In this document: positions 251 to 39,178 of the stretch, one piece after another
Layout of the letters: each line of letters starts with the position of its first letter
Numbering within the stretch: position 1 is the first letter of the stretch
Assembly (NCBI RefSeq): GCF_036588685.1
Contig: NC_086385.1
Span: 38,711,216 to 38,775,215, forward strand
Source: Mytilus trossulus
Lineage: Eukaryota
DNA length: 64,000 nt
Reading direction: 5' to 3'
The notes under the pieces: generated by a model
The model's database searches: none
Told to the model about the DNA's origin: nothing
Seen by the model: only the letters and a program-made list of their open reading frames with translations
Made by a program: the position numbers and the translations under genes

Positions 251-583
251 AGCATATGTCATGTAATAAGACAGTTCATTCGGTGAACGTTACCGTAGGA
301 GAAAATTTGATTCTAACCTGCACTTGCTATAACAAAACCAATGGTCAATGGATGGGTCCAAAAAAAGAATTTGAAGATTCCGGGGATTCAATACCATACA
401 CACAAGGCTTGAAACTGAACAAAAAATTGAACAAATCAAAGTATTCAATTTTTGGTGGATATAAAATTAAAAAATGCAACTTAAAGATTTCTAACTTCTT
501 GTCTGAGGACGATGGTGCCTACCAGTGTACCTATGCTGAATCATCAACAATGTACATAGATGTATACAACGTAGTTGCGACAA
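251..583 (+). CDS. Ig V/I-set domain exon
   Basis: VTVGENLILTC...QW...CNLKISN...EDDGAYQC gives the B-strand Cys, C-strand Trp and D-x-G-x-Y-x-C motif. Acceptor tatag|, donor |gtaagt, symmetric phase 1-1. Confidence 0.9.
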
Positions 584-3500
584 GTAAGTAGAATCTACTT
601 AACACATATGTCTTAAGTAGTTTTGTGTAATAGTCTGTTAAAAGCTATTTAAATAGAGAAATAAAAATCTGAATTACAGTACAAAATGACAATGCCCATA
701 CAAAATGTATAAAATCTTATTAACAATGAGGATAAGCATATCAAACATTATCAAGTTGTCAAAGTAAGACAATTAATTACATGTAGATCATTTAGCAGAG
801 TGATTAATTCTGTAAAAATGTTTTGCTGACTGGTGTTTGTCGAATTTCTATTGTCAATATTTTTTAAAACTTATACTGCGAATTACTTATTTCCATCGTA
901 CCAATTTTCGATTATATTTTAAGTGTCAAAATTAGAGTCGATCGTTCAATGACACAATTTACATCGACTGACCCATTTTACCCACTCATCCATATCATAC
1001 AGCCTAAACAAATAATGACATTACCGATCGGCTGAAATACATATATGCGTATTTTACCATGGATGTGTACTTAACGGTAATAAAGAACATCAGAATTAGG
1101 ATTTTAATGAAAATCTAATCAATCACACGCCTGTCGACATACATACTTGGGCTACTTGCGGAGACCAAGTTATTCTAAATATTTTGTTTGTTACCTCCTT
1201 TTTTCGAATCAAAACCATATTTTTTTTTTGCATATATCAAATGGTATATGATGTACAGAGCATACAAACAATAATTCTGTAAACTGGTAGTATATTGAAA
1301 GAGATGTGCATGGGAATGACACTCTTAAGAATTGATGGATATCGTGCTGACTCGTGCTGTTGTAGTCCAACTGTTATCACTCGATATTTTCGTGGGTTCA
1401 TATTGCGCAGTGTTTAGTTTTCATTGTAGTATATTGTAGACGTGCTTGTTTATCGTGTATTGTTTTATTGATTTCTTTGAATATATTTGTCTTTAGATTG
1501 GTATTAAGTTTATCTGATTGTGGATTTGTTAGGTTTTGTCGTCGTGTTGGTTTTCTTTTTAATGGCGTCTATAATTAAACGACGTTTGAGCCTTGTTTAA
1601 TGTATTCTTGCAAAAATTAAAATCACCAAAAATACTGGACTCTGAGGAAAGTTCAAAAAGGAAAGTCCCTAGTCAAATGTTAATACCAAAAGCTCAAACA
1701 TATCAAACGAATGGATAACAACTGTCATATTTGATTTGGTACAGGTATTGTCTTAGGTAGAACATGGTGGATTTAACCGGATTTTATAGATGGCTAAACC
1801 TCATTTTGTATGACAGTTGCATAAAATTCCATTATATCGACAGCGATGTGTGAACAAAACAAACAGACACAATTGAAAAAAATGTCAATTGTACAGGTTA
1901 AGCAGTCAACTATGTGTTATCAACTTAATCAATCTGGACAAACAAGTATATTAACAAACATTAATCATGTCAAAATTAACCATGCACATGCAATTTATGT
2001 GTCTCCGCATATCTATTTCGTAGGTGCACAGTATGTTACAGATGTGTCTTTAGAGCATCATGTAAACAAGAGCATGACAACAGAAATATGCACGCTTGAA
2101 ACAAATTGTAGGTTTGTTTTCGTTTAACTGATTATAATTAATTTGTTTAAATTATTTATTGATATAATTATTATGAATTTGAAACTAGTGAGAGATTTTT
2201 TTTTTTTTTAAAGTCTTTACTCACTAGCTTGTACTATGTTGTTTTGTGTCCACAATTATTATTATTTTAATTTTTGACACGACCAGTCGTTTTTTTCTTT
2301 AATATATCTAATAAATGTGGACTAGCATGCCAGATGATGCATGTCGGACTGAATAAGCTTTCAGTATCTGAAAGTACCCCCATTTCAGTTTTTGTTTTTG
2401 TTGATTTTTTTTGTACTTACCATTACGATCAATAAATCAATCATTTTCTATCCTTTTTTGCAGTTTCTTTTTCTTCTAAAAATATAAAGTATGTGGCACT
2501 TATGTCACATCGAATAGAAAAGGGGAGTGAATTTACTTGTATGCTAAGTATGTTTTTTTATTTATGCGTTAGTATAAATAATTTTAATCTGAACGTTTGC
2601 TCATCCATTTGAATTGATTAAAACTGTGTCATTCATTGGCCTTTTGCAGTTGACTATACAGTATGATTTTTCCTTATACATGTATTTTTGAAAGCCAGTT
2701 ATACTTTAATTTATTTAGCTGAGCAAAGTATTTACGGATCATGATTTATAATTTGCTTTTATCTCAAACTATTGCTTTTCAACCCAACAATATTCTTTGC
2801 AGATCAGGTCAATTTCTATTAATCATATTTTTTTTTTATAATTTCGACTTATTATTTTTTCATTTTTTATCTACATAATTTGATTATGCACAAGGGACAT
2901 GTTTTGTACACGTAAATTTAAAATACCAGTGATAGTAATTGTTTTTATCTGTAATTTAACCGTTTTTGTCTCATATTCCCGTGTGTGACATATGACTGAT
3001 TTTGTATCTGTTACTTTGGTGCATATGCTTAATCGATTGATGATAATTGAAATCGACGTTAAACTTTAGCTATTTACTAAATAAAATAACAAAAAAATAT
3101 GAAATAGTTTCAAGCTCAGTTTGATGGATTAAGTGTCTTTTAATTCCGAATTATTAAGCCGTTACTTCTTGGCAATTAAATTTAGACAGCGTCAGAAACA
3201 TATAATATTGCAACATTTACTATCAACATCTAGTATCTATATATATTTCATTTAACATATTGTTATTATAAATTGTGGTCTGCAATACTACCTGGAACTA
3301 TTTGGTAGAAACACAGAATAAGAACAGAGAAAGAACATTCTATTTTCTCAACCACACGGCTAATTATTAATCAGGTAAAAGATACAGACAATACATTATA
3401 AGTGTGCTTGATAATACATATAACATATACCACAGTTGTTCAATAAAAAAAGAGGAGAATCATTTCACACAGTATACAAAGGAGGATAACTCCTTGTCAA

Positions 3501-6500
3501 GATCAAATGTTCATTAACTTTGTTTAAGTAACACAATTGTAATCAATTACAGCTGATTAATGATTACAATTGCAATTATCCCAAGCCTGGTTATCTTTCT
3601 GTTTGCTATGTGATATCATCATATCGATGTTATCGTTGTTTGATCTGTCTGATCTAAAATGATGATATTTTGTTAATTTATTTTTCTAGATACGAACACA
3701 CTTCAAACAAAGTTCTTGTTGAAACAGTGGATTTTGCCAGTGATTGTAGTTTTAATTACATTGGTCGTAGTAACAGTTATTTTACTGTGGCATAAAAAAG
3801 GTACGGTGTAAAATTATGTTTGTTAATAAATATATTCGTTTTAATAATAAAAAAAATCTATATAAAAAATAGCGCAATGGAAGGGAACATGTATGTAAAT
3901 GGAAAAAACACATGAATACTAAACTTCCAATACGATGGCAAACAAATATTTTTTATTTCTCCGTGTTCTCTTTAATTAAAGTGTGTTATAGCTACATGAA
4001 TAAGCATCAATTAGTTTGTGCATAATATGGTGTGAGCTGGACAGGGTTTACACTTACGGCATATCAAGCTCATGGAGAACCAGTAAACCGGAGAACGCTG
4101 CCACGATATATAAGATTGACAATAACATGCATTAAAATGATAATTAAATCGAAGTATACAGCTATTAAAAAACAAAAAAACAAAAATCGAATTTTTCTTT
4201 CTCTTTTTTAATCTATAAAACTTTTTTTTGTTTTCAGACAAAGTGGAACACAAATCAAGGTATTCCTTGTCCATATGTATGTCTCTTTTAAGTATCCGTA
4301 AAATTATTTAAAAGTTCTATCAAAAAACATGAATAAGCAGTTTGTAAAGTTTTAATTTCTTGAAAGCTGGCTGCAAGGGGAAATCAATTATGTGCGGTGT
4401 AAATTAATTATACATTACATGCTATCTAAAATATAAAGGAAATGCTACTATTTATTTGAATTTGAAGGTTGATTGGATATTCTTTAAGAATATCGAATAT
4501 ATACTTACAAACGCACTTTATTATATGTAATGCGTACATTCTGGTGTTTAGAAACGTTATCATGGTGTTTTATTCATCAGAAGACTCTTTTAGTAATTAT
4601 GTTTACTTTTTAGAAATTTGTATATTTGTTCCCCCATTGCTTGTCTCGGACATTTAAAGTAACACTTTGTATAGTTGTTGTAGATTAAAAAAATATATTC
4701 GCACGAAAGTTTTGAAATGTGTTAGCCAAGGCTCCGTGTTGAAGGCCGTACTTTAAGCTATAATGGTTTACTTTTTAAATTGTTACTTGGATGGAGAGTT
4801 GTCTCATTGGCACTCACACCACATCTTCCTATATCTATTAAATATAAAATGTTTGGTAAATGAAATTATAAATAGTTATAGGAATATATGGTATGAGTGC
4901 CAATGAGAAGGCTCGCCATCCAAGTCACCATTTATAAAAATAAACCATTAGAGGTCAAGGTACGGTCTTCAACACAGAGCATTGCTTAACATCGCAAGCT
5001 ATAAAGAGCCTCAAAAGATTACTGTGTAAAACCATTTAAACGGGAAAAACAACGGTCTAAACTACATAAAAAACAAGAAACCTTATGAAGCACACCGACA
5101 AACGACAACTATTGAACATCAGATTTCTGACTTAGGACAGGTGCAAACAATTGCAGCGGGATTAAACGTTTAAATGGAACCAAACCTTTTCCTTTATCTG
5201 AAACAATATTGGTTCGTCCCCGTTAGTATCTTTTCCAAACGTATAATTTCCTGTCAAAAAATTATGACAAGTAAACAAAAATTATGAGTACAACCAATAA
5301 CGTCAGTTATATAGTCTTTTATTGTGCGAATCTGTTACGGGTTGTTTTAAGTAACTTCTTTTTCTGAAGAACATGCCAAGTATAATACATTTTGTCTTTT
5401 TTTCAGACAGATTCATAATATTGAAACTTATCCTCGAGGTACTAATTTTCATTCTTAGATGTGTTTGTTTATAATTTTAAAGGAGTGGCATTCATGCTAT
5501 ATTTACACCACAACGATAGATGTATTAATGCAATAATAATAAAGCAAACGATTTTACAAGTATATTTACAAATGGAGATGAAATTGGAGTCTTGCGCTCA
5601 TCTGATTATACATTGATACATCTTATCATTAAAAAACGGATAGGTAACACTTAACATATCCCCAATGCCGTTCGTCATTCCAAGTCAGGTCAATCTTGAC
5701 GACGTGTGGACCATAAACTGCTTATAGATTTGTCTTCTCTGTATTCTGTTATCCGCTTATCTGTTACATGTTTGTGTAGTTTCGTAAAATAAATATAAAA
5801 AATAAGAACTGTTATTACTGCCCATGAGGCAACTCTCCACAAGAGACCAAATGACTCAGAAACTAACACATTTGTGTCATCGTTTGGCCTTCAACAATGA
5901 GCAAAACCCATAACGCATTGTCAGCTAAAACAGGACACGAAATCACAAAATGAATAATGTAAAACAATGCAAATGAGAAAACTAACGATATTATTAATGT
6001 ACAAAAAAAATGAACGAAAACCAAACAGCAACAAACAACACCGACTGAATTAAGGGTTCCTTACTTAGGACATAGACGTTTGTCCAATGTGGCATACTTC
6101 AAAAACCGTAAGATGCAGTTATAAGTGTATCCGAAATCAAAGGCCAAAAACATATTTGACTAAGGATTTAATGTACACTTTTGCAACATTTAGATGAGAG
6201 GTTGCAGCCAAAATTTTCATAACGAGCCTTTCCTTAACCGGTCAGGCGAATAACAATTCACAAAGTCATCATGTTCTGACAACATTTTTTAAATGCATGT
6301 GGTGCATCTTGAAAACGTTTTAAGTAGCATATGAAACAAATTATTCTAATGACTGAATTTATACTAATATGTATTCTCAATAGTTATCAAATGCTTGTAA
6401 TTTTGCCAGACGAGCGTTACGTCTACATAAAACTCATCAGTGACGCTTAGATCAAAATAATTTGAAAGCCAACCAATACAAAATTGAATACATTGAGGAC

Positions 6501-9500
6501 TCAATATTTACACAAATATAAGATCACACGTCGTCTGTTATATAAATTAATCATAGTTTATACTTTCCTTTATAATTTAGATGATTCTATCGAAAATCAA
6601 CTGTACCAGACATCTCAATTTCTTGAAATAAACAATTTTCCTGGACAAAATAGAGTATGCCAAAATAAAGTTTTGTCATCTTCTCAGTTGCATGCTGATC
6701 AGAGATATAGAGGTTTGAATAAAAATATATATTTATTTTCTAATAACTATCTTACTGTTATCTGAAACAAACATAACATACTTCTCAGGTTAGGGGAGGG
6801 TTGGGATCCCGCTTACATGTTTAACCCCGCAACATTATTTATGTATGTGCCTCTCCCAAGTCAGGAGCCTGTAATTCAGTGGTTGTCGTTTGTTAATGTG
6901 TTACATATTTGTTTTTCGTTCATTTTTTTTACATAAATAAGGCCTTTAGTTTTCTCGTTTGAATTGTTTTACATTGTCTTATCGGGGCCTTTTATAGCTG
7001 ACTGTGTGGTATGGGCTTTGCTCATTGTTGAAGGCCGTATGATGACCTATAGTTGTTAAGGTTTTTGGTCTTTTGTGGATAGTTGTCTCATTGGCAATCA
7101 TACCACATCTTCTTTTTTATATTCTTATGTCAAAATATGATCACATAATCAAAGATGCATTATACATGTATGATACTAAACCCCTAACGGGAAGGATTAT
7201 GCCTGATATGATGACGACATAATCTTTCAATCAGTTTAATTGAAGTCTGAAGCTGGCATGTCATTTAACTGCTACTAGTCTGTTGTTATTTATGTATTCT
7301 TGTCATTTTGTTTATTTTCTTTGGTTACATCTTCTGACATATGACTCGGACTTCTCTTGAACTGAATTTAATGTGCGAATTGTTATGCGTTTACTTTCTA
7401 CATTGGCTAGAGGTATAGGGGGGGGGGGGGGCGGTTGAGATCTCACAAACATGTTTAACCCTGCCGCATGTTTGAGCCTGTCCAAAGTCCGGAGCCTTTG
7501 TCTTTTGTTAGTCTTGTATTATTTTTCATATTAGTTTCTTGTGTACAATTTGGAGTTTAGTATGTCGTTTATTATGACTGAATTATTATATCTATTTGTT
7601 TTGGAGCAAGCTGAAGGACGCCTCCGAGTGCGAGAATTTCTCGCTGCATTAAAGACCTGTTGGTGACCTGCTGCTGTTGTTTGTTCTATGGTCGGGTTGT
7701 TGTCTCTTTGACACATTCCCCATTTTCATTCTCAATTGCATGTACTGATAATGTCTATTCAGAGGGTCTAAGAGATTGTAATATAGTTTTCAGTGATCAT
7801 GGAATAGTATCAATTAAGGAACTTTAAGCATTGGGAAAAGAAATTAGCTATAGTTATCAAAACAGTTACGACGTATGGACGGTGTAATAATGAAAGTTGT
7901 ATTGTGTCATTTGTAAAAGATAAATGGAGTACGATGCAGTGGGGATCGGAATAACGTAGATTGTAATGTACTTTGTTACATAATATGTACAGGGTGTAGA
8001 CATTCCTTGGTATTACGGTTTTTGTTTGAGGCTTGAATGTGTGTATATAAATTGGTACGAAAGTGATGTATCATCATAAACTTGAAAATATATTTATTTT
8101 TCAGCAAGAGTAACAAAAAAAGAAACCGGCCATTGTTCTAGAGATATAGTATCTCGAGGTGCCAATGTACAGGTAAGACTTATTAAAATAATGCATAACC
8201 TACCAATTGAAAAAAAGGATTTCCAATAGAATGACCAGAATAATACAAAACAGCAAAACAAGGAATTCTGAATTTTTCTGGCACGATTTCATTTGAAGCT
8301 TACATAAGTATTTGCCCGTTTAGATATTATGTAAATCTAAAACATGGACATCTGCTTTATGTAAGCTTCAATAACCTCATTGAACCATATTTAAAGTTAT
8401 AATTATACTTTGAAGAAAGCCATGCTTCGACTGTTATCACATGCCTTTCCGTAATGTTATCGCATGGCATTCCGGTGATACTCGACAAATTCCGGAAAAT
8501 ACACCTCAATGCTACGATTTTACTGAAAAACATAACAAAGTAATTTACAAAACAATCATTTGGATACTGGAAAGTATATTATGTAAACTAATAAAAAATT
8601 AAATAATAATATATAAAAAAAAAAATATTAAATAAATGCATTATTCAAAAGTATCAAACATAATTTGAAAAGTGTTCATTATGTATAATGTTGATTTTTT
8701 TTTTGTCGATTCATCCTTTTTAAAATATTTTTCTTTTCTGTTGAGTCATGTCGAATGTCGAATGTACTAAATTTGGGGTCCGACGTCCATGAAATTTTCC
8801 CTCTTTGAACGTCTATTTGGTAACCACATGAAAGGATCAGTATATGAATCTGTTATTTTTCTCGATTGTTGAAGCATAAAATTATGATAAAAAGATCATT
8901 CCATGCGGCTCTTGGGCTGATATTGAACATAGGGCTGATAATACATGCGATATGAAAAATGCCATGTAACAATCTGATATTATCATATAATATAACCTAT
9001 GATATTTACTGTATGATAACAGCATTAAATTAACGTAAATTCTATATTTTTCGAATTGGTGCTTAGCAGACTGATATGAAAAGTTTATCACATTCTTCGA
9101 CTGTTATCACATGCCTTTCCGTAACGTTATCACATGGCATTCCGATGATACTCGGCACATTCCGATAAATACACCTCAATGCTACGTTTTCACTGAAAAA
9201 CATTACAAAGTAGTGTACATAACAATTAAAATAAAATTTGAATACTGGAACAAAAACCAATCAAATTATTAAATAAATACATTTTTTAAAAGTTTCAGAC
9301 ATAATTAGAAAGTTACTTTAAAAAAAGTTTACTTTTCTAAACAGTGTTCATTATGTATATTGTTGATTTTTTTTGTCGGTCCGTCCATAATAAAATGATT
9401 TTCCTTTCTGTTGAGGCATATGATTGAAAGATTTCATATCGAATGTACTTAATTTGGGGTCCGACGTGCGTGAACTTTTCACTCTTTGAACTTCTATTTG

Positions 9501-9926
9501 GGGATCACGTAAAAGGATCAATATATGAATCTGTTATTTTTCTCCATTGTTGAAGCATACGATAAAAATATCATAACATGTCATTTTTCATATCGCATGT
9601 TTTATCAGTCCTCGGTCAATATCAGCCCTCGACCCATGGGGCTCTTGGGCTTATATTGAACCTAAGGCTGATAATACATACGATATGAAAAATTCCATGT
9701 AAAAATCCGATATTCTTTCTCCATGTTCTCCTTAATCATTGCATTTACGTTATTTCAGATAGACGCAGTTAACATGAACTACGCTGAAGTAGCGTTTAGT
9801 GTCCAGCCTTCAGCACACAGATTCATTATTCATGGTAATGATGATAGAACAGTTTATTCTGAAATCGATCATGCAATTAAAGCAGAACCTTTACCATCGT
9901 CAAGCAGTGAAAGTGATGACGATTGA
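251..9926 (+). CDS. Spliced immunoglobulin-superfamily type I membrane receptor (single V/I-set Ig domain, TM helix, tail with ITIM/ITSM-like motifs); 5'-partial
   Basis: Seven AG/GT-bounded exons splice into one open frame with compatible phases: 251-583 (1-1), 3690-3800 (1-1), 4238-4259 (1-2), 5407-5438 (2-1), 6581-6712 (1-1), 8105-8172 (1-0), 9759-9926 (0-stop). No signal-peptide exon is seen in the window. Confidence 0.85.
3690..3800 (+). CDS. Stalk and transmembrane exon
   Basis: tttttctag|...|gtacgg. Reads NTNTLQTKFLLKQWILPVIVVLITLVVVTVILLWHKK, a hydrophobic helix followed by basic stop-transfer residues. Confidence 0.88.
4238..4259 (+). CDS. Cytoplasmic micro-exon (DKVEHKS)
   Basis: Polypyrimidine tract ttttttttgttttcag| and donor |gtattc; the phases link the neighbouring exons in frame. 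Confidence 0.6.
4720..5200. repeat. Two inverted copies of an interspersed repeat related to a Penelope-like 3' end
   Basis: 4720-4838 (...gttgtctcattggcactcacaccacatcttcctatat) is mirrored by 4877-4980. Related copies lie at ~5815-6070, 6790-7120, 19000-19370, 26605-26765 and 58580-58980, the last being the 3' UTR of the RT element at 58580-61340. Confidence 0.65.
5407..5438 (+). CDS. Cytoplasmic micro-exon (RQIHNIETYPR)
   Basis: ttttttttcag|...cgag|gtacta; phase 2-1 fits both neighbours. Confidence 0.62.
6581..6712 (+). CDS. Cytoplasmic exon containing ENQLY (NxxY-like)
   Basis: tataatttag|...agag|gtttga; lies in the frame of ORF 6484..6765. Confidence 0.7.
7170..7737 (+). mobile_element. 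Penelope-like retroelement 3' UTR fragment
   Basis: Reverse complement of ~11260-11830, the 3' UTR of the RT-bearing copy. Confidence 0.75.
8105..8172 (+). CDS. Cytoplasmic exon (ARVTKKETGHCSRDIVSRGANVQ)
   Basis: tttttcag|...cag|gtaaga; phase 1-0. Confidence 0.7.
8425..9715. repeat. Tandem pair (~670 bp spacing) of a hairpin-bearing non-autonomous element in the last intron
   Basis: cttcgactgttatcacatgcctttccgtaa... occurs at 8425 and 9095. A long palindrome (tcatatcgcatg...atcagccc / gggcttatat...catacgatatga) lies at ~9575-9705. Confidence 0.65.
9759..9926 (+). CDS. Terminal exon with MNYAEV (ITIM-like) and TVYSEI (ITSM) motifs and an acidic Ser-rich end
   Basis: tatttcag|ATA GAC...; in the frame of ORF 9723..9926; ends SSSSESDDD*. 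Confidence 0.85.
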   Translation: MDAVNMNYAEVAFSVQPSAHRFIIHGNDDRTVYSEIDHAIKAEPLPSSSSESDDD

Positions 9927-27625: not shown

Positions 27626-28541
27626 CTTGTCCTGTTCACCTAAACTAAACTGCACTTAACTGAACGGTAAACAAGCGTCTGTTATCGAAAGGACTGTAAA
27701 TTGGCACATCACTGTGCAATATGTTATGCTAAAAATCACAATGCTTCTCAGCACTCAACTTCATTTCAATTTCGTCAATCAAACAGTGTTTCCACACAGC
27801 AGTCATCTCAACCAGAATTCAATATGCATGGTTCAAAAAACGAAAGAACTTCAGGTCGTTAGACCCACACACATGGACCGAATTACTGCAAACATCAGGT
27901 TTTGATTACAATTTTATTATTGATAGTGTAACTAATGGTTTTAATTTGATGAATAATTTGTTTCACTCTAATTTTGTATGTGATTATAATAAAAACCTTT
28001 TATTATTAAAAACTACAAGTCAGCATTAGAAAATTCTGATAAGGTTGACCTGAAATTAAGGTCCGAATTTAAACTTGGTAATTATATTTTGTGCAATGAG
28101 ATAGAGACTCCGAAACTTGTAAGTGCTCTTGGTGCAAATACAAAAACCTAACGGTTCAGTAAGATTTATTCATGATGCAAGTCTACCAGAGGTTGGCGGT
28201 ATAAACTATTATGCAAGTGATACATCATGTAATATATGGACTTAAAGATGCATGTAAAATTATTAAACAGGATGATTTCCTGGCAAAAGTGGATTTGTCA
28301 AATGCATATAGAAGTTTGAAAGTGCATTCTTCCAATTACCCATATACTGGGTTGCACTGGAGATTTCAAGGTGATAATCGGGATACATTTTTCTATGACA
28401 CTAAGTTACCTTTTGGAGCAGCTCAAACCCCAGGTATTTTTCAGAGACTTAGAAGTACAGTGTGTAGAATTATGAAATCAAAATATAATTTTTGTGTTAT
28501 TGCATATTAAGATGATTTTTTAACTATAGAATCTACATATG

Positions 28542-32072: not shown

Positions 32073-33615
32073 GCAAGTTGATGTGAAATCGTTTAAATAT
32101 TGTACAATTGTGAATTATTTGAATATTATTAAGCATTCACACAAACCAAATGAACTAGAGGAGCCAACCGCCGGTAATTGGTAAAGTCAGAAAGTTTTAA
32201 ATGGAGTTCGTCGTTCTATAGGTGATGCAGAGAAAGGTGCAGAATTAATGACACATCGATTACTCTTAATAATAAAAGCTAATTTAGATTTGAACTCGCA
32301 AAATGATATTTGTATTTGGTCAGCTTGCTTAATGGGATTTTATGGATTATTACGTCCAGGATTTGTTTTTGCATTCAGGAAAATAAATAGAGCATAGAGA
32401 TATCCAAATTTGTGATGTTCACTATCATAGGAATGGTTACGGTATTGAGCTTCAGTAGACGAAAACAGTACAATTTCGTGAACGAAAATTAAATATTGTG
32501 TTACCCTCCATAGTTGGGCATCCATTGTGTCCAGCTTCAGCAATAAAGGAATTATTGCATTTTCATTTTAAACGTGGTGCACAGGAAGACGCACCTTCAT
32601 TGTGCAATTTATCGTATCAGATGTTTATTTTACCCATAAATAGCATTTTAATTAGCAATGATGTCAAACAGCATATAACAGGTCACTCTTTTCGACGGGG
32701 CGGTGCCACTTGGTGTTTGCGCATTGGGATGTCAGACAGTATGATAAAGGATATTGGAATGTGGAAAAGTGATGCATATTTGCGGTACACAGAAGTGGAC
32801 CTCAGCAGAAAATTCGACATTGTGCAATCTGTTGGTGCTAGCCTTCCGCCTAACTAACTTGGTAATTCCCCCCTTTTTGTTGGTTGGGCTGGTGATTGTC
32901 TACCCTTCATTGTACTGATTGCATAATTAATTGCATTTTCTTATTGGCCCATTACATAGCCTTATATTTATTTATCATATATATCTATTTTGCCAAACTT
33001 GGAATCAATATAAGAGATTCAGTGAATACCGACTTTGAAGTAAAATGGTACTTCCTACTCCATTCTTGTTGCAACGTTATAAGCGGTTTATGCAGTGATA
33101 AATAAATGATGTAAGCAGCCGCATGGCGCAATTTTTGAATTCCCCAACCACCCATTCCAGTAGCATTATTGAATGGGCGTGGTTAAGCATAGATTATATA
33201 TGTCACTTTTGCCTTATATCAATTATAGAATACTGCATGTATTATTATTTTTTTTTTATCTTTTGTGATTATTCACATATGTTTAAGCTTTCAGAATTAC
33301 ATTCTGAATTGACTTTAAGAGAATATGAAGTATTTGGGGATTGTCTACCTTTCATTGTACTGATTGCATTATGAATTCATTTTCTTATTATTAAAATTTG
33401 GCCCATGACATAGCCTTATGTTTATTTATCATATATATATATTTTGCGAAACTTGGAATCAAAATTAGAGTTACCGGTCTTAAAAGTCGAAACACACAAT
33501 TGATAGGTGATTTTTTTTTCGCACAATAGGATGGGCACCTTTATAATAATAATTCTTTTTTTATTCCGTAAGCAAATATACAGCTCATAGGATTAAATAC
33601 ATACACAAATTATAC

Positions 33616-34195
33616 AGTTTCCAATTGTGAACTTTCCATTTCTAAGTAGCAACATTCCAGCAGCACCTGCATACGGGGTACATATCTCCCAATTGATACG
33701 ATATTCCCGTGCTTGCATTTCATATCATGATTTTCTTGATGGAGGGTTGCTGCTCATAAGGAAGCTATTAAACCAAGAGTTCCAAATGGTGAAGTTGAAA
33801 TCATCATTTCGTAAATTTTGCGGACGCTATCACGAGATGGTTGACCGTTATGGAATTTCACAAATGATATCGGATATATTCCTTACGTCGTAACTACAAT
33901 CCCCTTCCCTTTCATGGATGTGACCTACCGAATTAGACTTTTTATCGGATTTGTTATCACATAAGCAACACGACGGGTGCCACATGTGAAGCAGGATCTG
34001 CTAACCCTTCCGGAGCACCTGAGATCACCCCTTGTTTTTGGTGGGGTTCGTGTTGTTTATTATTTAGTTTTCTATGTTGTGTCATATGTACTATTGTTTG
34101 TCTGTTTGTCTTTTTTCATTTTTAGCCATGGCGTTGTCAGTTTGTTTTAGATTTATGAGTTTGACTGTCCCTTTGGTATCTTTCGTCCCTCTTTT
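33616..34195 (+). mobile_element. Penelope-like 3' fragment (copy 1)
   Basis: NFPFLSSNIPAAPAYGVHISQLIRYSRAC plus 3' UTR. Confidence 0.85.
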
Positions 34196-34273
34196 ACATA
34201 AACATATACAGCATTAATTTATAGCGGAGGTTGTTATACAATTTACATTGGTTATAAAGGTACATAACAAAAA

Positions 34274-35028
34274 TCAAGTGTTACGAATTTTCTCTGCCTC
34301 AAACAGGTATTTACCCATATTATTTAATTCTTTAATATTTCTTACAGATAGTAATTGAACTAATTTGAAGGTAGATAGGTTTCTATAATAATATATCTTA
34401 ATATATTTACATCTGACATTTACATATTTATCACACTCTAATATAAAATGATAATCGTCTTCAATTACTTTCTTATTACACATATTACAAACACGCTCAT
34501 ATCTGGAAATATTTAAGAATCTTCCAGTTTCTACATTAAGTGAATGTGAATTGATTCTATATTAAGTTACATATGACTGGTATAAACTGTTCAATGGTCG
34601 ATTCAAATAAAATTGCAAAGTATGTCCATCATGTATATATTGATATAAATTACATTTTGAAGTATTTCCAAAAAATAAAAAGGCTTCAGCAATATAATAA
34701 TCAACAATTCTTATTTTAAATTCATGCAAAAATAATTGACTATTTCCAACACTTTGTGGTAACCATATATCATTAAATCCATACCTGTTTATTATGTCTC
34801 TTATTTTACAACTCCAATTGAGTTTATCATTCGGTTTGACAAAACTAGATTCGTACATATCTTCATAAATACTATTCAATATACAAGTATTAGATTCTAA
34901 TATCTTCAACCAGTAACGAACCATTCTTACATATCTATTTACATGTAAACAAAGGTAAACGCCCAAGTTCAAAATATACAATTTGGTTTACAGTGTTTTT
35001 TCTCACTTTCAAAATTCTTTTTAAATAA
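34274..35028 (-). pseudogene. CR1-group LINE 3' part (copy 1), split by the composite element
   Basis: YLKRILKVRKNT, YWLKIL and EDDYHFILEC motifs. Confidence 0.85.
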
Positions 35029-35234
35029 CCGCGGTGAAGTATGTCCATTATTCATAGTTCATTATTCATTATTCAGTAATGAATAAATAAATAGTTCACT
35101 ATTCACTATTCAATATTAAAAAATGAATAACGAATAATGGAATAGTTTATGTTTCATTATTCAACTTGTAGCGGTGAATAGTAAAATAAATAATTAAAAA
35201 AAAATTGACCGTGACACTATAGCTATATCCTGAT

Positions 35235-36585
35235 TCGAAATGACAATTAGAGTGTTTACGGAGGAACTTATTGCCACAATACGCGTAAAAATGAGGAAAT
35301 AGCTAACTTTGAATAATGAAATGGATATTTTGAATAATATAATGGACTGCTATGACCCTTCAGACCCTAATTACAGATAAATGTTATACCCAAATCGAAA
35401 GTTTATCAAGAGAGGAACAAAAGGTATATAGTCAATATGTTCCGCTACGCATATTAGAGGAGAAACGAAGGACTTAAACATCAAACTACGCGTGCAAATT
35501 AAGAAATAGTCAATTTTGAATAATGAGATGGATATTTTGAATAATATAATGGACTGCTATGACCTTTCAGACCCTAATTACAGATATATATTATACCTCA
35601 ATCGGAAGCGTATCAAGAGAGGAACAAAAGGTATAGAGTCAATTTGATCCGCAACGGATATTACAGGAGTAACGAAGGACTTAAATATCGAAATACGCGT
35701 GAACATTGAGAAATAGCCAATTTTGAATAATGAAATGGATATTTTGAATAATGGAATAAACTGCTATGAACCTTTAGTCCCTTATTACAGATATATATTA
35801 TACCTCAATCGAATGCGTATCAAAAGAGGAACAAAAGGTATATAGTCAATATGTTCCGCAACGGATATGACAGGAGTAACGAAGGACTTAAATATCGAAA
35901 TACGCGTGAACATTGAGAAATAGTCAATTTTGTATCATGAAATGGATATTTTGAATAATGGAATGGACTGAAAGGACCCTTCAGCCCCTTATTACATATA
36001 TATAGTATACCTCAATCGGAAGCTTATCTAGAGAGGAACAAAAGGGTATATAGTCAATTTGATTCGCAACGCAATTTTGAATAATGAAATAGATATTTTG
36101 AATAATGAAATGGACTGCTGCGACCCTTTAGCCCCTCATTATAGATAAACCTTCAACCCCATACGAAAGCTCATAACGAGAGGAACAAAAGGTATATAGT
36201 CAACATGTTCCGCAACGCATATTAGAGGAGAAACGAAAGGCCTTAATATCGAAATACGCTTGAACATGAAGAAATAGCTGATTTTGAATAATAGAATGGA
36301 CTATTGCAACCCTTCAGGCCCTAACAAATGGCAAAATTTATACACCAAATTACAGCTTTTGATGGCGAAATAAACTGAGTATACACGATATGTGCTGCAA
36401 TGACCATTATAGGGGTTACAAAGGACCTAAATTCCAAAATACGTGTGAAAATGAAGAAATACCCAATTTTGAATAATGAAATAGATATTTTGAATAATGG
36501 AATGGACTGCCGCGACCCTTTAGCCCCTAATTATAGATATAAATTATACCTCATTCGAAAGTTTATTAAGAATGGAACAGTAGTA
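35235..36585 (+). repeat. 207-bp tandem array in the left TIR (copy 1)
   Basis: The acgcgt anchor recurs at 35281, 35488, 35695 and 35902 (exactly 207 bp apart); later units carry deletions. Confidence 0.9.
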
Positions 36586-37033
36586 TGATTATGAGAGTTC
36601 TGCCACACACCCATTTTGAGGTTGGGTCGAGGGAAAATGTGTGGAAGAAAGAAACACACACAAAAAAGTAAAAATTCACGGATAGAAAAAAAAAAACGGA
36701 TTTTAAGATTACAAATATGTCTGATCGCAGATAGAAATTAGAATACTGCGCAAGAGGTAGAACTTCTGAAAGAAAATTGGCCACTGTTAAGGCCAATCTA
36801 GAACAGTGCTGCAATGATGAGGAAATTCACAAATTGCGAGAAGTAGGGCAGGACTCACCCTGGATTAGCAAAGACATTAAAGATGTTGACACGAAGTTAA
36901 GGTCTGCAAAATTATAACCTTGTGCTGGAAAGGGGAATCTTTTCGCACATGAGTGTGTGAGAGATTAAACAAGCTGCTGACTACCGTCTTGGTAAAGAGA
37001 GAGACCGATGGAGCTGTGCAAATTGTGAGCTAT

Positions 37034-37514
37034 TGTACCGACTGGCGAACAAGATCTTCCAGGACATCGCTATAGGTGCGTGTGGAGTTGCCTGAAAAGT
37101 ATTTCAACATTTTCTCTTTCATGGTGCGGTTCCAACGATTGAAAATACGCGACTTCTCTTCCCGGTGGAGTAGAGATCGATCCCATGTTTTTGAAGCAGC
37201 TGATTTACATGTTTGTTGTAAAACTCAGTGCCTTTGTCTATATATATCTTCTTGGGTACACCGCTTGGAAGGCATCCCGGCCCGCAGCGTCACCTCCTTC
37301 TTGTTCTTGCGTGGTATTAGCCAGCCATATTTGGAGAAGACATTGATAATATTATGCTCAGGATAAATTTATTTCCCTTGTTGTCCCTGGAGAAGTCACT
37401 CATATCAACGAGGTCGACCTCCCTGGTCTCATTCACACCCCTAAATGCTACACAGCGTTTATGAATCTAGCGTCGAACTGGTTTGTGCAACTCATCAGTT
37501 AGCTCATCGGTCCA
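37034..37514 (-). pseudogene. Polinton-type retroviral-like integrase, 3'-truncated (copy 1)
   Basis: Across frameshifts the minus strand reads WTDEL..ELHKPVRR, EVDLVDMS..NKG.KFIL, NVFSKYGW, PKKIYIDKGTEFYNK and NRWNRTMKEKMLKYF. Confidence 0.85.
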
Positions 37515-37925
37515 GACCGAATCGAACTTTGGTACCGATGATGGATCCAACGATGCTGAAGTTCAAGCGTTCGCGTGTGGTAGAGTTGGGAATGGTTTTA
37601 AGCGAGGCTAGCATAGTTTTGTCACATATAGAGTTGCGTGCGGTTGCATCCTTGTGCTGGGCATAACAAAGATCGTGCTGATATGCTGCCTGGTCAACTT
37701 GATTAATGGGTTTTGACCAAGCCTTCGGGTGCCACCGAGAAGTAGACGCTTGCTTAGTTTAGTCCCTGGCCGGATAAAGTTGTGTCCGGGTACATGCATT
37801 TCAATGGATAATCGGTTGATTAGTTTGTTCATAAACCATGTACCGGTTGTAGCAACAGACTGAGACTTATCGGCATCATACACCTTGCAGTTTCCAACCT
37901 TTCTCCGTTGCATGATGCTGGTCAT
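37504..37925 (-). pseudogene. Parvovirus-VP1-type phospholipase A2 (copy 1)
   Basis: EMHVPGHNFIRPGTKLSKRL, then after a frameshift KPINQVDQAAYQHDLCY. Confidence 0.85.
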
Positions 37926-38000
37926 TACCTCGCTGGTGTTAACTGTGTCCGTCTTCCTACGACTGTCACCCAGAAAATCATCGCTATTTTATTTTAATAA

Positions 38001-39178
38001 ATGAACGTTACAGATATTTCCTACAGTGCCAGAGCACCCACGAGGAGTAATTACTACATCCTTTCTCAGCGATCGATAAGACGGTTGATCATTGGGAAGC
38101 CGGACTGTGGTAAGAGGACGCTGCTGAACAACCTATTCCTGTGCGATGGATGGCTCCGACTACAATCGATTGTACGTCTTCGAATAATCGCTTCACCAAC
38201 CATCTACCAGCTGTTGGAGCAAGCGCTGGAAAAAAGCTTCCCTAAAGAAGATATCCGAGACCTCCTACAGTGCAAGGGAAAGTCACCCCACTCGATGATC
38301 GATGTGGTTAACACCTTACCACCACCATGACACCCGAGTGGTATCGACACTATTTATGCCCCACCTACAATAGTAAAGGTGGCATTAGGTTTTCTGGTCT
38401 GTGCGTCCGTTCGTCCGTCCGTCTTTCCAGCCGTCCGTCCTTCCGTTCGTTCAGGTTAATGTTTTTGGTCAAGGAAGTTTTTAATGAAGTTGAAATCCAA
38501 TCAACTTCTAACTTAGTGCACATGTTACCTATGATATGATATTTTTAATTTAATTTCCATATTAAACTTTTGACCCAAGTTTCACGGTCCATTGAACATA
38601 GACAAGGATATTGCAATTTTCAGGTTAAAGTTGTTGGTCAAGGTAGTTTTTGTCCAATCAACTTGAAACTTTGTACACATGTCCTTAGGTAATGATCTTT
38701 CTAATTTAAATGCCAAATTATATTTTTTATCCCAATTTCACGGTCCACTGAAAATAGAAAATGATAAAGGGAGTGGGGCATCCGTGTACTATGGACAAAT
38801 TCTTGTTTCTTCGAGCAAGGGAGCGATGTACCAGACCACGAAAACTTGATCCCAGCCGTAAGAACCTCATGGTGTTCGACGACTTGATGCTGAGAAAACA
38901 GAACACGTAAGAAGACAACGTCGATTGTTTTTACCTGTGCCAGTACTACTTCACACTGCCCCGCCAGTCGATCCGGAAGAATGCAAACTTCCCCTGCCTC
39001 TTCTAAAAATATCGATCACATCCGACGCTATCACTGCAACGATCTCACCAAGGAACAGTTTGACGCTCTGTGTAATCATTGCTGGTCCAATCCCTATGGA
39101 TTTGTAACCATCGATTTTACAAGCACCAAGGCAAATGGAAAATATCGATGCAAATTAAATGAGTTCTATGAGGTATAA
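38001..39178 (+). pseudogene. A32/FtsK-like packaging ATPase (copy 1), interrupted at 38353-38806
   Basis: Degenerate Walker A IIGKPDCGKRTLL, Walker B NLMVFDD, then YLCQYYFTLPRQSIR and PYGFVTIDFT. Confidence 0.85.

Follow-up and report, generated by a model that had tools for sequence, protein, structure and literature searches.

In a 64,000-nucleotide stretch of the Mytilus trossulus genome (hereafter the window; contig NC_086385.1, here C13, positions 38,711,216 to 38,775,215 of the forward strand), a gene at window positions 251 to 9926 is predicted to encode a receptor with a single immunoglobulin (Ig) domain, a transmembrane (TM) helix and a tail in which a sequence resembling an ITIM (immunoreceptor tyrosine-based inhibitory motif) is followed by an ITSM (immunoreceptor tyrosine-based switch motif). 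We hold it moderately probable that this gene is an inhibitory member of a paired immunoglobulin-receptor family, arranged as a tandem cluster of ITIM/ITSM genes and genes whose tails resemble the ITAM (immunoreceptor tyrosine-based activation motif). Conversion lets paired receptors maintain binding domains that are alike on opposing tails (PMC5112662), and at the family level the mussel sequences passed every sequence test for such receptors that we ran. Indeed, both receptor types lie in one gene cluster (in our map and, by adjacent locus numbers, in M. californianus), similar binding domains are found on opposing tail motifs across the family, and for relatives of the gene an exchange of ectodomains between types is indicated by approximately unbiased (AU) tests, by contrasts in synonymous divergence (dS) and by a break in identity between 5' and 3' halves. 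Judged on these data, the incongruence between Ig domains and tails is the genomic signature of paired receptors of the CEACAM1/CEACAM3 type, and it suggests a molluscan counterpart of the paired on/off immune receptors known from vertebrates. From sequence alone we infer expression, phosphorylation, partners, signalling direction, ligand and immune role.

Paralogue searches along the lines proposed in an earlier note on this DNA returned 48 genome matches for the Ig exon and 35, on eight contigs, for the last exon (47 candidates scored), and uncovered a tandem cluster. The best Ig matches were crowded around the window on C13 and on a second contig, C40. Two database proteins retrieved with the Ig exon (about 60% identity) end in a different tail, and the gene directly upstream also carries this second, ITAM-like type, in which a single exon with 36 genome matches encodes both TM helix and tail. 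Our map of the modules spans 695 kb on C13 and 780 kb on C40. The C13 region (38.49-39.19 Mb) contains 13 Ig exons (one broken), 11 ITAM-like tails and two ITIM/ITSM last exons, and the C40 region (0.54-1.32 Mb) 21 Ig exons (two broken), 16 ITAM-like tails (four broken or partial) and four ITIM/ITSM exons; the cluster genes are all on one strand. On this map, the gene is a minority member of a 0.7-Mb tandem cluster dominated by ITAM-like genes. Both tail types have close locus numbers in M. californianus and lie on the same single contig in M. coruscus, and three RefSeq models (P0001, P0199 and P0210) confirm that an Ig domain is joined to the ITAM-like tail. Two adjoining ITAM-like genes at C13:38675741-38690608 are near-identical (98% in the Ig domain), which marks a very recent duplication, and a smaller group of two Ig exons and three ITAM-like tails was seen at C14:57.78-57.85 Mb.

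The strict ITAM, defined as D/E-x-x-Y-x-x-L/I-x(6-12)-Y-x-x-L/I (PMC6994640), was present in 11 of the 23 long ITAM-like tails (mean 0.17 and maximum 2 after shuffling). A relaxed ITAM with a nine-residue spacer was found in 22 of these tails, Y-x-N in all 23, and an ITSM in none. A common origin of the two tail types was rejected (hhalign probability 0.2%). A search of limited sensitivity retrieved 32 proteins with the ITAM-like tail, all from Mytilus. These tails (L061:2760-3290 and its paralogues) also keep a terminal W-L-[VI]-I-Y in 21 of 23 cases. The TM helices of the genes contain a patch rich in Gly as well as a polar residue (Asn, His or Gln) near the inner end.

The grouping of Ig domains did not follow tail type. 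Across a tree built from 44 of them, the tail label changed 13 times, which equals the value for shuffled labels. For a stricter tree of 32 rows, 12 of the 44 were dropped: distal Ig domains, an Ig domain 27 kb from its tail, draft models that possibly fuse neighbours, and distant loci. Model P0009 probably fuses an upstream Ig-FN3 gene to a relative of our gene, and its TM-proximal Ig domain alone was kept. A single clade for the seven ITIM-type Ig domains among the 32 was rejected (AU p = 7.5e-56). Similarly rejected was a single Ig clade for the four genes of this tail subtype (AU p 2.7e-6), a group set by tail similarity yet named after the first tree had been seen; the last exons of those four genes do group (support 66/71, not starred). 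Comparison of individual genes gave a similar picture. The Ig domain of the C40 counterpart of our gene has a dS of 0.25 to that of its ITAM-like neighbour and of 1.0 to that of our gene, and counterpart and neighbour share upstream non-coding blocks. In some ITIM-type genes the Ig domains are 68-85% identical to those of ITAM-like genes; those of the RefSeq model P0020 (XP_076089058.1, M. galloprovincialis) share 80-85% identity with an ITAM-like gene on C40. Moreover, when the second ITIM gene of the cluster was compared between C13 and C40, its 3' half was 94-96% identical over 12 kb and its 5' half, which includes the Ig exon, 68-80%, with a dS of 0.45 for the Ig domain and 0.03 for the last exon.

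The last exon (9759..9926, + strand) encodes the ITIM-like motif MNYAEV (9774-9791), a linker with an invariant Gly, the motif TVYSEI (9849-9866) and a Ser/acidic end before the stop. TVYSEI is a strict ITSM (T-x-Y-x-x-V/I; consensus from PMC8631942), some 25 residues after the first tyrosine. Across the six frames of the window we counted 503 ITIM and 44 ITSM patterns as the chance level, so the motifs alone mean little and their support comes from the conservation of the gene in relatives. In 29 aligned paralogous last exons both tyrosines and the linker Gly were invariant, at a mean column identity of 42%; conservation of the tyrosine motifs in homologues, on which the first interpretation had been staked, thus held. 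A set of 30 last exons contained the strict ITIM in 28 cases, the ITSM in 26 and both in 24, with a spacing of exactly 25 residues in 24 (range 24-29); our gene is one of the two that lack the strict ITIM. The linker (9810-9845) also has a near-invariant Phe and Ile besides its Gly, odd for a loose linker, and its conservation suggests that it may fold or bind a partner. A [DE]NxxY motif, similar to PTB-binding sites, occurs in 23 of 24 full tails. Neither the last exon nor exon 6 matched a Pfam family. In databases, the last-exon module was found in 43 proteins, of which the 37 named are all from Mytilus, and in 243 cluster representatives. Twenty long module proteins were picked by hand, and the 17 that are named are all bivalve (Mytilus four, Mya eight, and Saccostrea, Crassostrea, Argopecten, Tegillarca and Mactra one each); a C. 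gigas protein carries the same module. By its distribution in these sequences, the two-tyrosine last exon is a bivalve-wide module.

In the mechanism that we propose, the single Ig domain would recognise a ligand displayed by a host or microbial surface, the two last tyrosines would be phosphorylated by a Src-family kinase, and SHP2 (or SHIP) would dock there through its tandem SH2 domains and damp haemocyte activation. Phosphorylated ITIM/ITSM motifs are known to dock SHP1 and SHP2 (PMC8631942). The NxxY site could serve as a dock for a PTB adaptor. Adaptors of the Syk, Grb2 or Nck type would be recruited by the more numerous ITAM-like neighbours, which would activate, so that any microbe or foreign cell taking advantage of the brake would also trip an activating twin. 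Unequal crossing-over or conversion would shift Ig exons between tail types and alter the gene content of haplotypes. An SH2 exon with PTPN11 as its best match is present on C12, with a second SH2 exon 6.6 kb away. In a CSK-like gene (L207:1827-3158; C4:57.23 Mb), two SH2-like exons, tandem or alternative, lie 1.1 kb apart; CSK normally has one SH2 domain.

Several observations weigh against a paired inhibitory receptor. The strict ITAM is missed by 12 of the 23 long ITAM-like tails, and an ITIM-consensus site also occurs in 16 of the 23, a count within the shuffled range. Tails were assigned to Ig exons as the nearest downstream position, at distances of 1.2-27 kb. The Met at -2 makes MNYAEV miss the strict ITIM (S/I/V/L-x-Y-x-x-I/V/L) by one residue, so that, of the ITIM-then-ITSM order read in the tail before, the second element was upheld and the first fell just short of its consensus. 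The paralogous last exons were gathered by similarity, which biases them toward motif conservation. SHP2 phosphatase exons were not found in 40 kb, and Syk was not identified in the genome, where a candidate on C4 is CSK-like. Of the 19 pairs compared, informative or control, none had a whole-exon dN/dS (nonsynonymous to synonymous divergence; pairwise Nei-Gojobori) above 1 (range 0.13-0.82); the earlier note had proposed to look at dN/dS in the Ig domain. As for our gene itself, its Ig domain is at most 61% identical to that of any ITAM-like partner in both stretches and among the retrieved proteins, with a dS of 0.9-1.1 to the two neighbours tested and no shared flanking DNA. Between its 5' half and the neighbours, no conversion tract was detected beyond the Ig exon, at 66-72% identity. 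On these comparisons our gene does not appear to be one member of a recently formed pair within this assembly.

Some of these observations would suit an adhesion or developmental receptor, in which the tyrosine pair recruits SHP2 as a positive regulator of ERK, the other tails dock Nck or Grb2 for actin, and the variation of the cluster reflects neutral birth and death. FRS2 and PZR are examples of scaffolds that recruit SHP2 in this positive role, and nephrin docks Nck and Grb2 for actin. The database names of relatives are nephrin-, turtle-, NCAM-, DSCAM- or hemicentin-like, and long Ig/FN3 ectodomains bear the last-exon module too (among 43 long module matches scanned, 32 had Ig or FN3 domains and 11 no family). 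A Y-D-E-I-like site in 21 of the 23 ITAM-like tails and the dN/dS ratios, never above 1, point in the same direction. However, the names are automatic, and immune clusters typically show what is seen here: low Ig identity between neighbours, broken copies, shifting gene content and an exchange of Ig exons between tail types. Moreover, an oyster receptor first named NCAM1 is a haemocyte inhibitory receptor (PMC11841013). We regard an adhesion or developmental role as quite unlikely.

The comparison of C13 and C40 bears on a second alternative. C40 is reverse-collinear with C13 and 94-99% identical near both ends, but of about 700 kb just 83 kb could be chained into an alignment, with a mean identity of 86%. 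By these alignments C40 is probably a second haplotype with a different gene content, which would amount to the presence/absence variation raised before. Our gene has no DNA-level match on C40 other than repeats, and the possibility that its C40 counterpart is an ordinary allele was ruled out (dS 0.8-1.3). Collinear sequences that align so poorly, and a gene with no match on C40 beyond repeats, would suit an allorecognition locus in which the Ig domain binds self alleles (homophilically as in Hydractinia Alr, or through a polymorphic ligand as in Botryllus), ITIM-type genes signal self and ITAM-like genes signal rejection, for example of foreign or neoplastic haemocytes. The Hydractinia and Botryllus complexes both mix ITAM and ITIM tails (PMC9546547, PMC12582321). 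However, no phenotype ties the mussel locus to allorecognition, and C40 may be a duplicate locus instead of an allele. Mussel genomes show wide presence/absence variation, and given this, haplotype divergence is not specific. Allorecognition as the role of this locus seems to us improbable, and we retain the paired-receptor reading.

The gene model, Ig to TM helix to tail as predicted from DNA, holds. One open frame runs through eight AG/GT-bounded exons of the + strand and would produce a type I membrane protein, with an Ig ectodomain, a stalk, an uncharged TM helix and a tail. Seven exons had been claimed in the earlier note: their in-frame splicing was borne out, but eight are required within 251-9926. 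The motifs that it named were all in place on the + strand, and its tail of about 140 residues measured 143, with the last two tyrosines 25 apart. The signal-peptide exon that it sought was recovered as two small leader exons (L061:7319-7367 and 8679-8720), 2.7 and 1.3 kb upstream of the window, which add a signal-like peptide and bring the predicted product to 346 residues. They precede the Ig exon (251..583, phase 1-1, V-like fold). The TM exon (3690..3800) encodes an uncharged 21-residue helix (about 3728-3790), and its donor context is the same in the C40 counterpart. Two micro-exons of 22 nt (4238..4259) and 32 nt (5407..5438) together encode 18 residues, and exon 6 (6581..6712) carries the [DE]NxxY motif (6592-6606) and is 63% identical to P0020. 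A 68-nt tail exon (8105..8172) follows, placed by frame, by the P0020 alignment and by the C40 counterpart. The frame is lost if exon 4, 5 or 7 alone is omitted. P0020 aligns end to end from the signal peptide at 44-48% identity, with no gap across both micro-exons, and in the C40 counterpart splice sites fall at corresponding positions for the Ig, TM, sixth, seventh and last exons, five in all. Of the predicted exons, the stalk exon (2024..2107; AG/GT-bounded, in frame, with one unpaired Cys) has the least support; its alignments to P0020 and P0009 consist mostly of gaps. Within the last intron, positions 8421-8878 and 9091-9559 form an internal duplication (78% identity).

The weak point of the model is exon 6. 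In the C40 counterpart this exon ends 9 nt further, at a GT absent from our gene; the ancestral donor is gone, so the frame rests either on a weaker frame-keeping donor at 6712/6713 or on skipping of the 132-nt exon, which also keeps it. Read-through would meet an in-frame stop at 6765, before both ITIM/ITSM tyrosines. The description of the gene as intact is subject to this reservation. A decaying copy, or one whose transcripts enter the intron and yield a truncated decoy, is the weakest alternative and a doubtful one: the missing GT, the stop, the Met at -2 and the several broken genes of the cluster speak for it, but a frame-keeping GT lies 9 nt upstream, skipping costs no frame, all exons are free of stops, and the last exon has a dN/dS of 0.13 on the path to the C40 counterpart.

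The Ig exon matched Pfam V-set slightly below the cut-off (E 1.3e-5; 25.7 bits against 26), and AlphaFold returned a confident beta-sandwich (pLDDT 90). With this model, Foldseek retrieved assorted V domains at E about 1e-6, catfish NITR11 and CD96 first; the matches listed, to rank 50, comprised NITR, CD96, light chains, Necl-1, CD8 and CRTAM, and no PD-1 or CD300 chain was among them. Sequence relatives that bear names are all bivalve. Membership of the PD-1/CD28 or CD300 families by descent was thus unsupported, V domains of other families being closer among the matches listed. The proposal of an inhibitory-type architecture reached by convergence fared well, given the invariant tyrosine pair, the PD-1-like spacing, the SHP2-like SH2 exon and the matches just described. 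Four cysteines are invariant in 29 aligned Ig exons: a Cys-x-Cys in strand B (319..327, + strand), made of the canonical first Cys and an extra one, an extra Cys in strand E (475..477), which we infer to be the partner of the extra strand-B Cys, and the canonical second Cys in strand F (526..528). In the wider set of 44 Ig domains, 38 retain all four, three lose both extra cysteines together and three lose the strand-B extra Cys alone. By these counts the second disulfide suggested before is likely. The parts of the Ig domain that vary are the C-C' and FG loops.

Comparison with known systems shows both likenesses and differences. Clustered Ig genes with related Ig domains on opposing in-receptor tail motifs are also found in CEACAM1 (ITIM/ITSM) and CEACAM3 (ITAM-like) and in the Xenopus Ceacam pairs (PMC5112662), where, as in the mussel, Ig exons are exchanged between types and the binding exon is more variable than the tail in some pairs. 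In contrast, we could show no homology to CEACAM, the mussel ITAM-like genes outnumber the ITIM genes about 4-5 to 1, and the mussel genes share one strand whereas the Xenopus pairs are inverted. The mussel TM helix and ITAM-like tail also form one exon, no near-identical recent pair turned up for our gene, and no dN/dS exceeds 1. As in PD-1, with its ITIM at Y223 and ITSM at Y248 (PMC7078208), one V-like Ig domain, a stalk and an uncharged TM helix precede an ITIM-like motif and an ITSM 25 residues apart (PMC7078208, PMC8631942), and Ala stands at pY+1, as is frequent in phosphatase-recruiting ITIMs. Unlike PD-1, the mussel gene has an extra Cys pair, an added NxxY site and a conserved linker with an invariant Gly; by no test is it an orthologue, and it belongs to a large shuffled family, not to a single gene.

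Among invertebrates, ITIM-bearing Ig receptors are already known in oysters (PMC11841013; reviewed in PMC11999971). CgNCAM1 has two ITIMs and co-immunoprecipitates with CgSHIP2 (PMC11841013), CgIgR has an ITAM and acts with CgSyk (PMC6994640), and CgIgIT, CgIgIT2 and CgSiglec-1 are further oyster receptors of the Ig superfamily. Like the mussel gene, these are bivalve Ig-TM proteins with tyrosine motifs, and haemocyte signalling has been shown in the oyster. They have, however, three to five Ig domains and are described singly, with no cluster or shared ectodomain in the portions of the reports that we draw on. Hydractinia Alr (PMC9546547) and Botryllus FcoR (PMC12582321) are likewise invertebrate clusters of the Ig superfamily with ITAM or hemITAM on some tails and ITIM on others, and FcoR shows haplotype copy-number variation (PMC12582321). 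Both are tied to a mapped allorecognition trait, unlike the mussel cluster; Alr tails are too diverse to align, whereas the mussel cluster has two fixed tail modules, and Alr domain 1 lacks the canonical disulfide that the mussel Ig domain keeps.

Since ITIM-type Ig receptors are known in oyster, Hydractinia and Botryllus, an ITIM/ITSM receptor in an invertebrate is in itself a modest novelty. In the literature that we searched, which included few subscription journals and no supplements, we found no report of a mollusc cluster that combines two fixed opposing tail modules with exchanged Ig exons. Paired receptors with exchanged binding exons are textbook vertebrate innate immunity, and one cnidarian and one tunicate are known to have ITAM/ITIM clusters; if true, a cluster of the same logic in a mussel would extend paired receptors to protostomes and argue for repeated convergence. 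It would also provide candidate genes, two signalling modules and typable haplotypes for the question of how bivalve haemocytes tell self from non-self, with relevance to how farmed mussels resist disease and, more speculatively, to transmissible neoplasia, which is known in Mytilus and Mya. With the conserved last exon as a simple marker, one could list candidate inhibitory receptors throughout the bivalves, which now go under uncharacterised or nephrin-like names. In its boldest form, the locus would be the protostome counterpart of vertebrate leukocyte receptor clusters: true paired receptors, variable between haplotypes and assembled with two plug-in exons for signalling, among which an arms race would move Ig exons back and forth from brake to trigger. 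It would also be the sought bivalve self/non-self locus and could govern acceptance of transmissible haemocyte cancers. Taken whole, this is an unlikely proposition.

Elsewhere the window contains remains of mobile elements. Positions 33606-42040 and 42042-50485 form a head-to-tail duplicate of 8.4 kb (99.5% identity) that holds broken pieces of a double jelly-roll capsid-like protein (PF21738); a Polinton-like element in decay, or else an artefact of assembly, may account for it. Pieces of a reverse transcriptase and of a tyrosine recombinase (28205-28510 and 32459-32857), both below Pfam cut-offs, fit a decayed DIRS-type retroelement.

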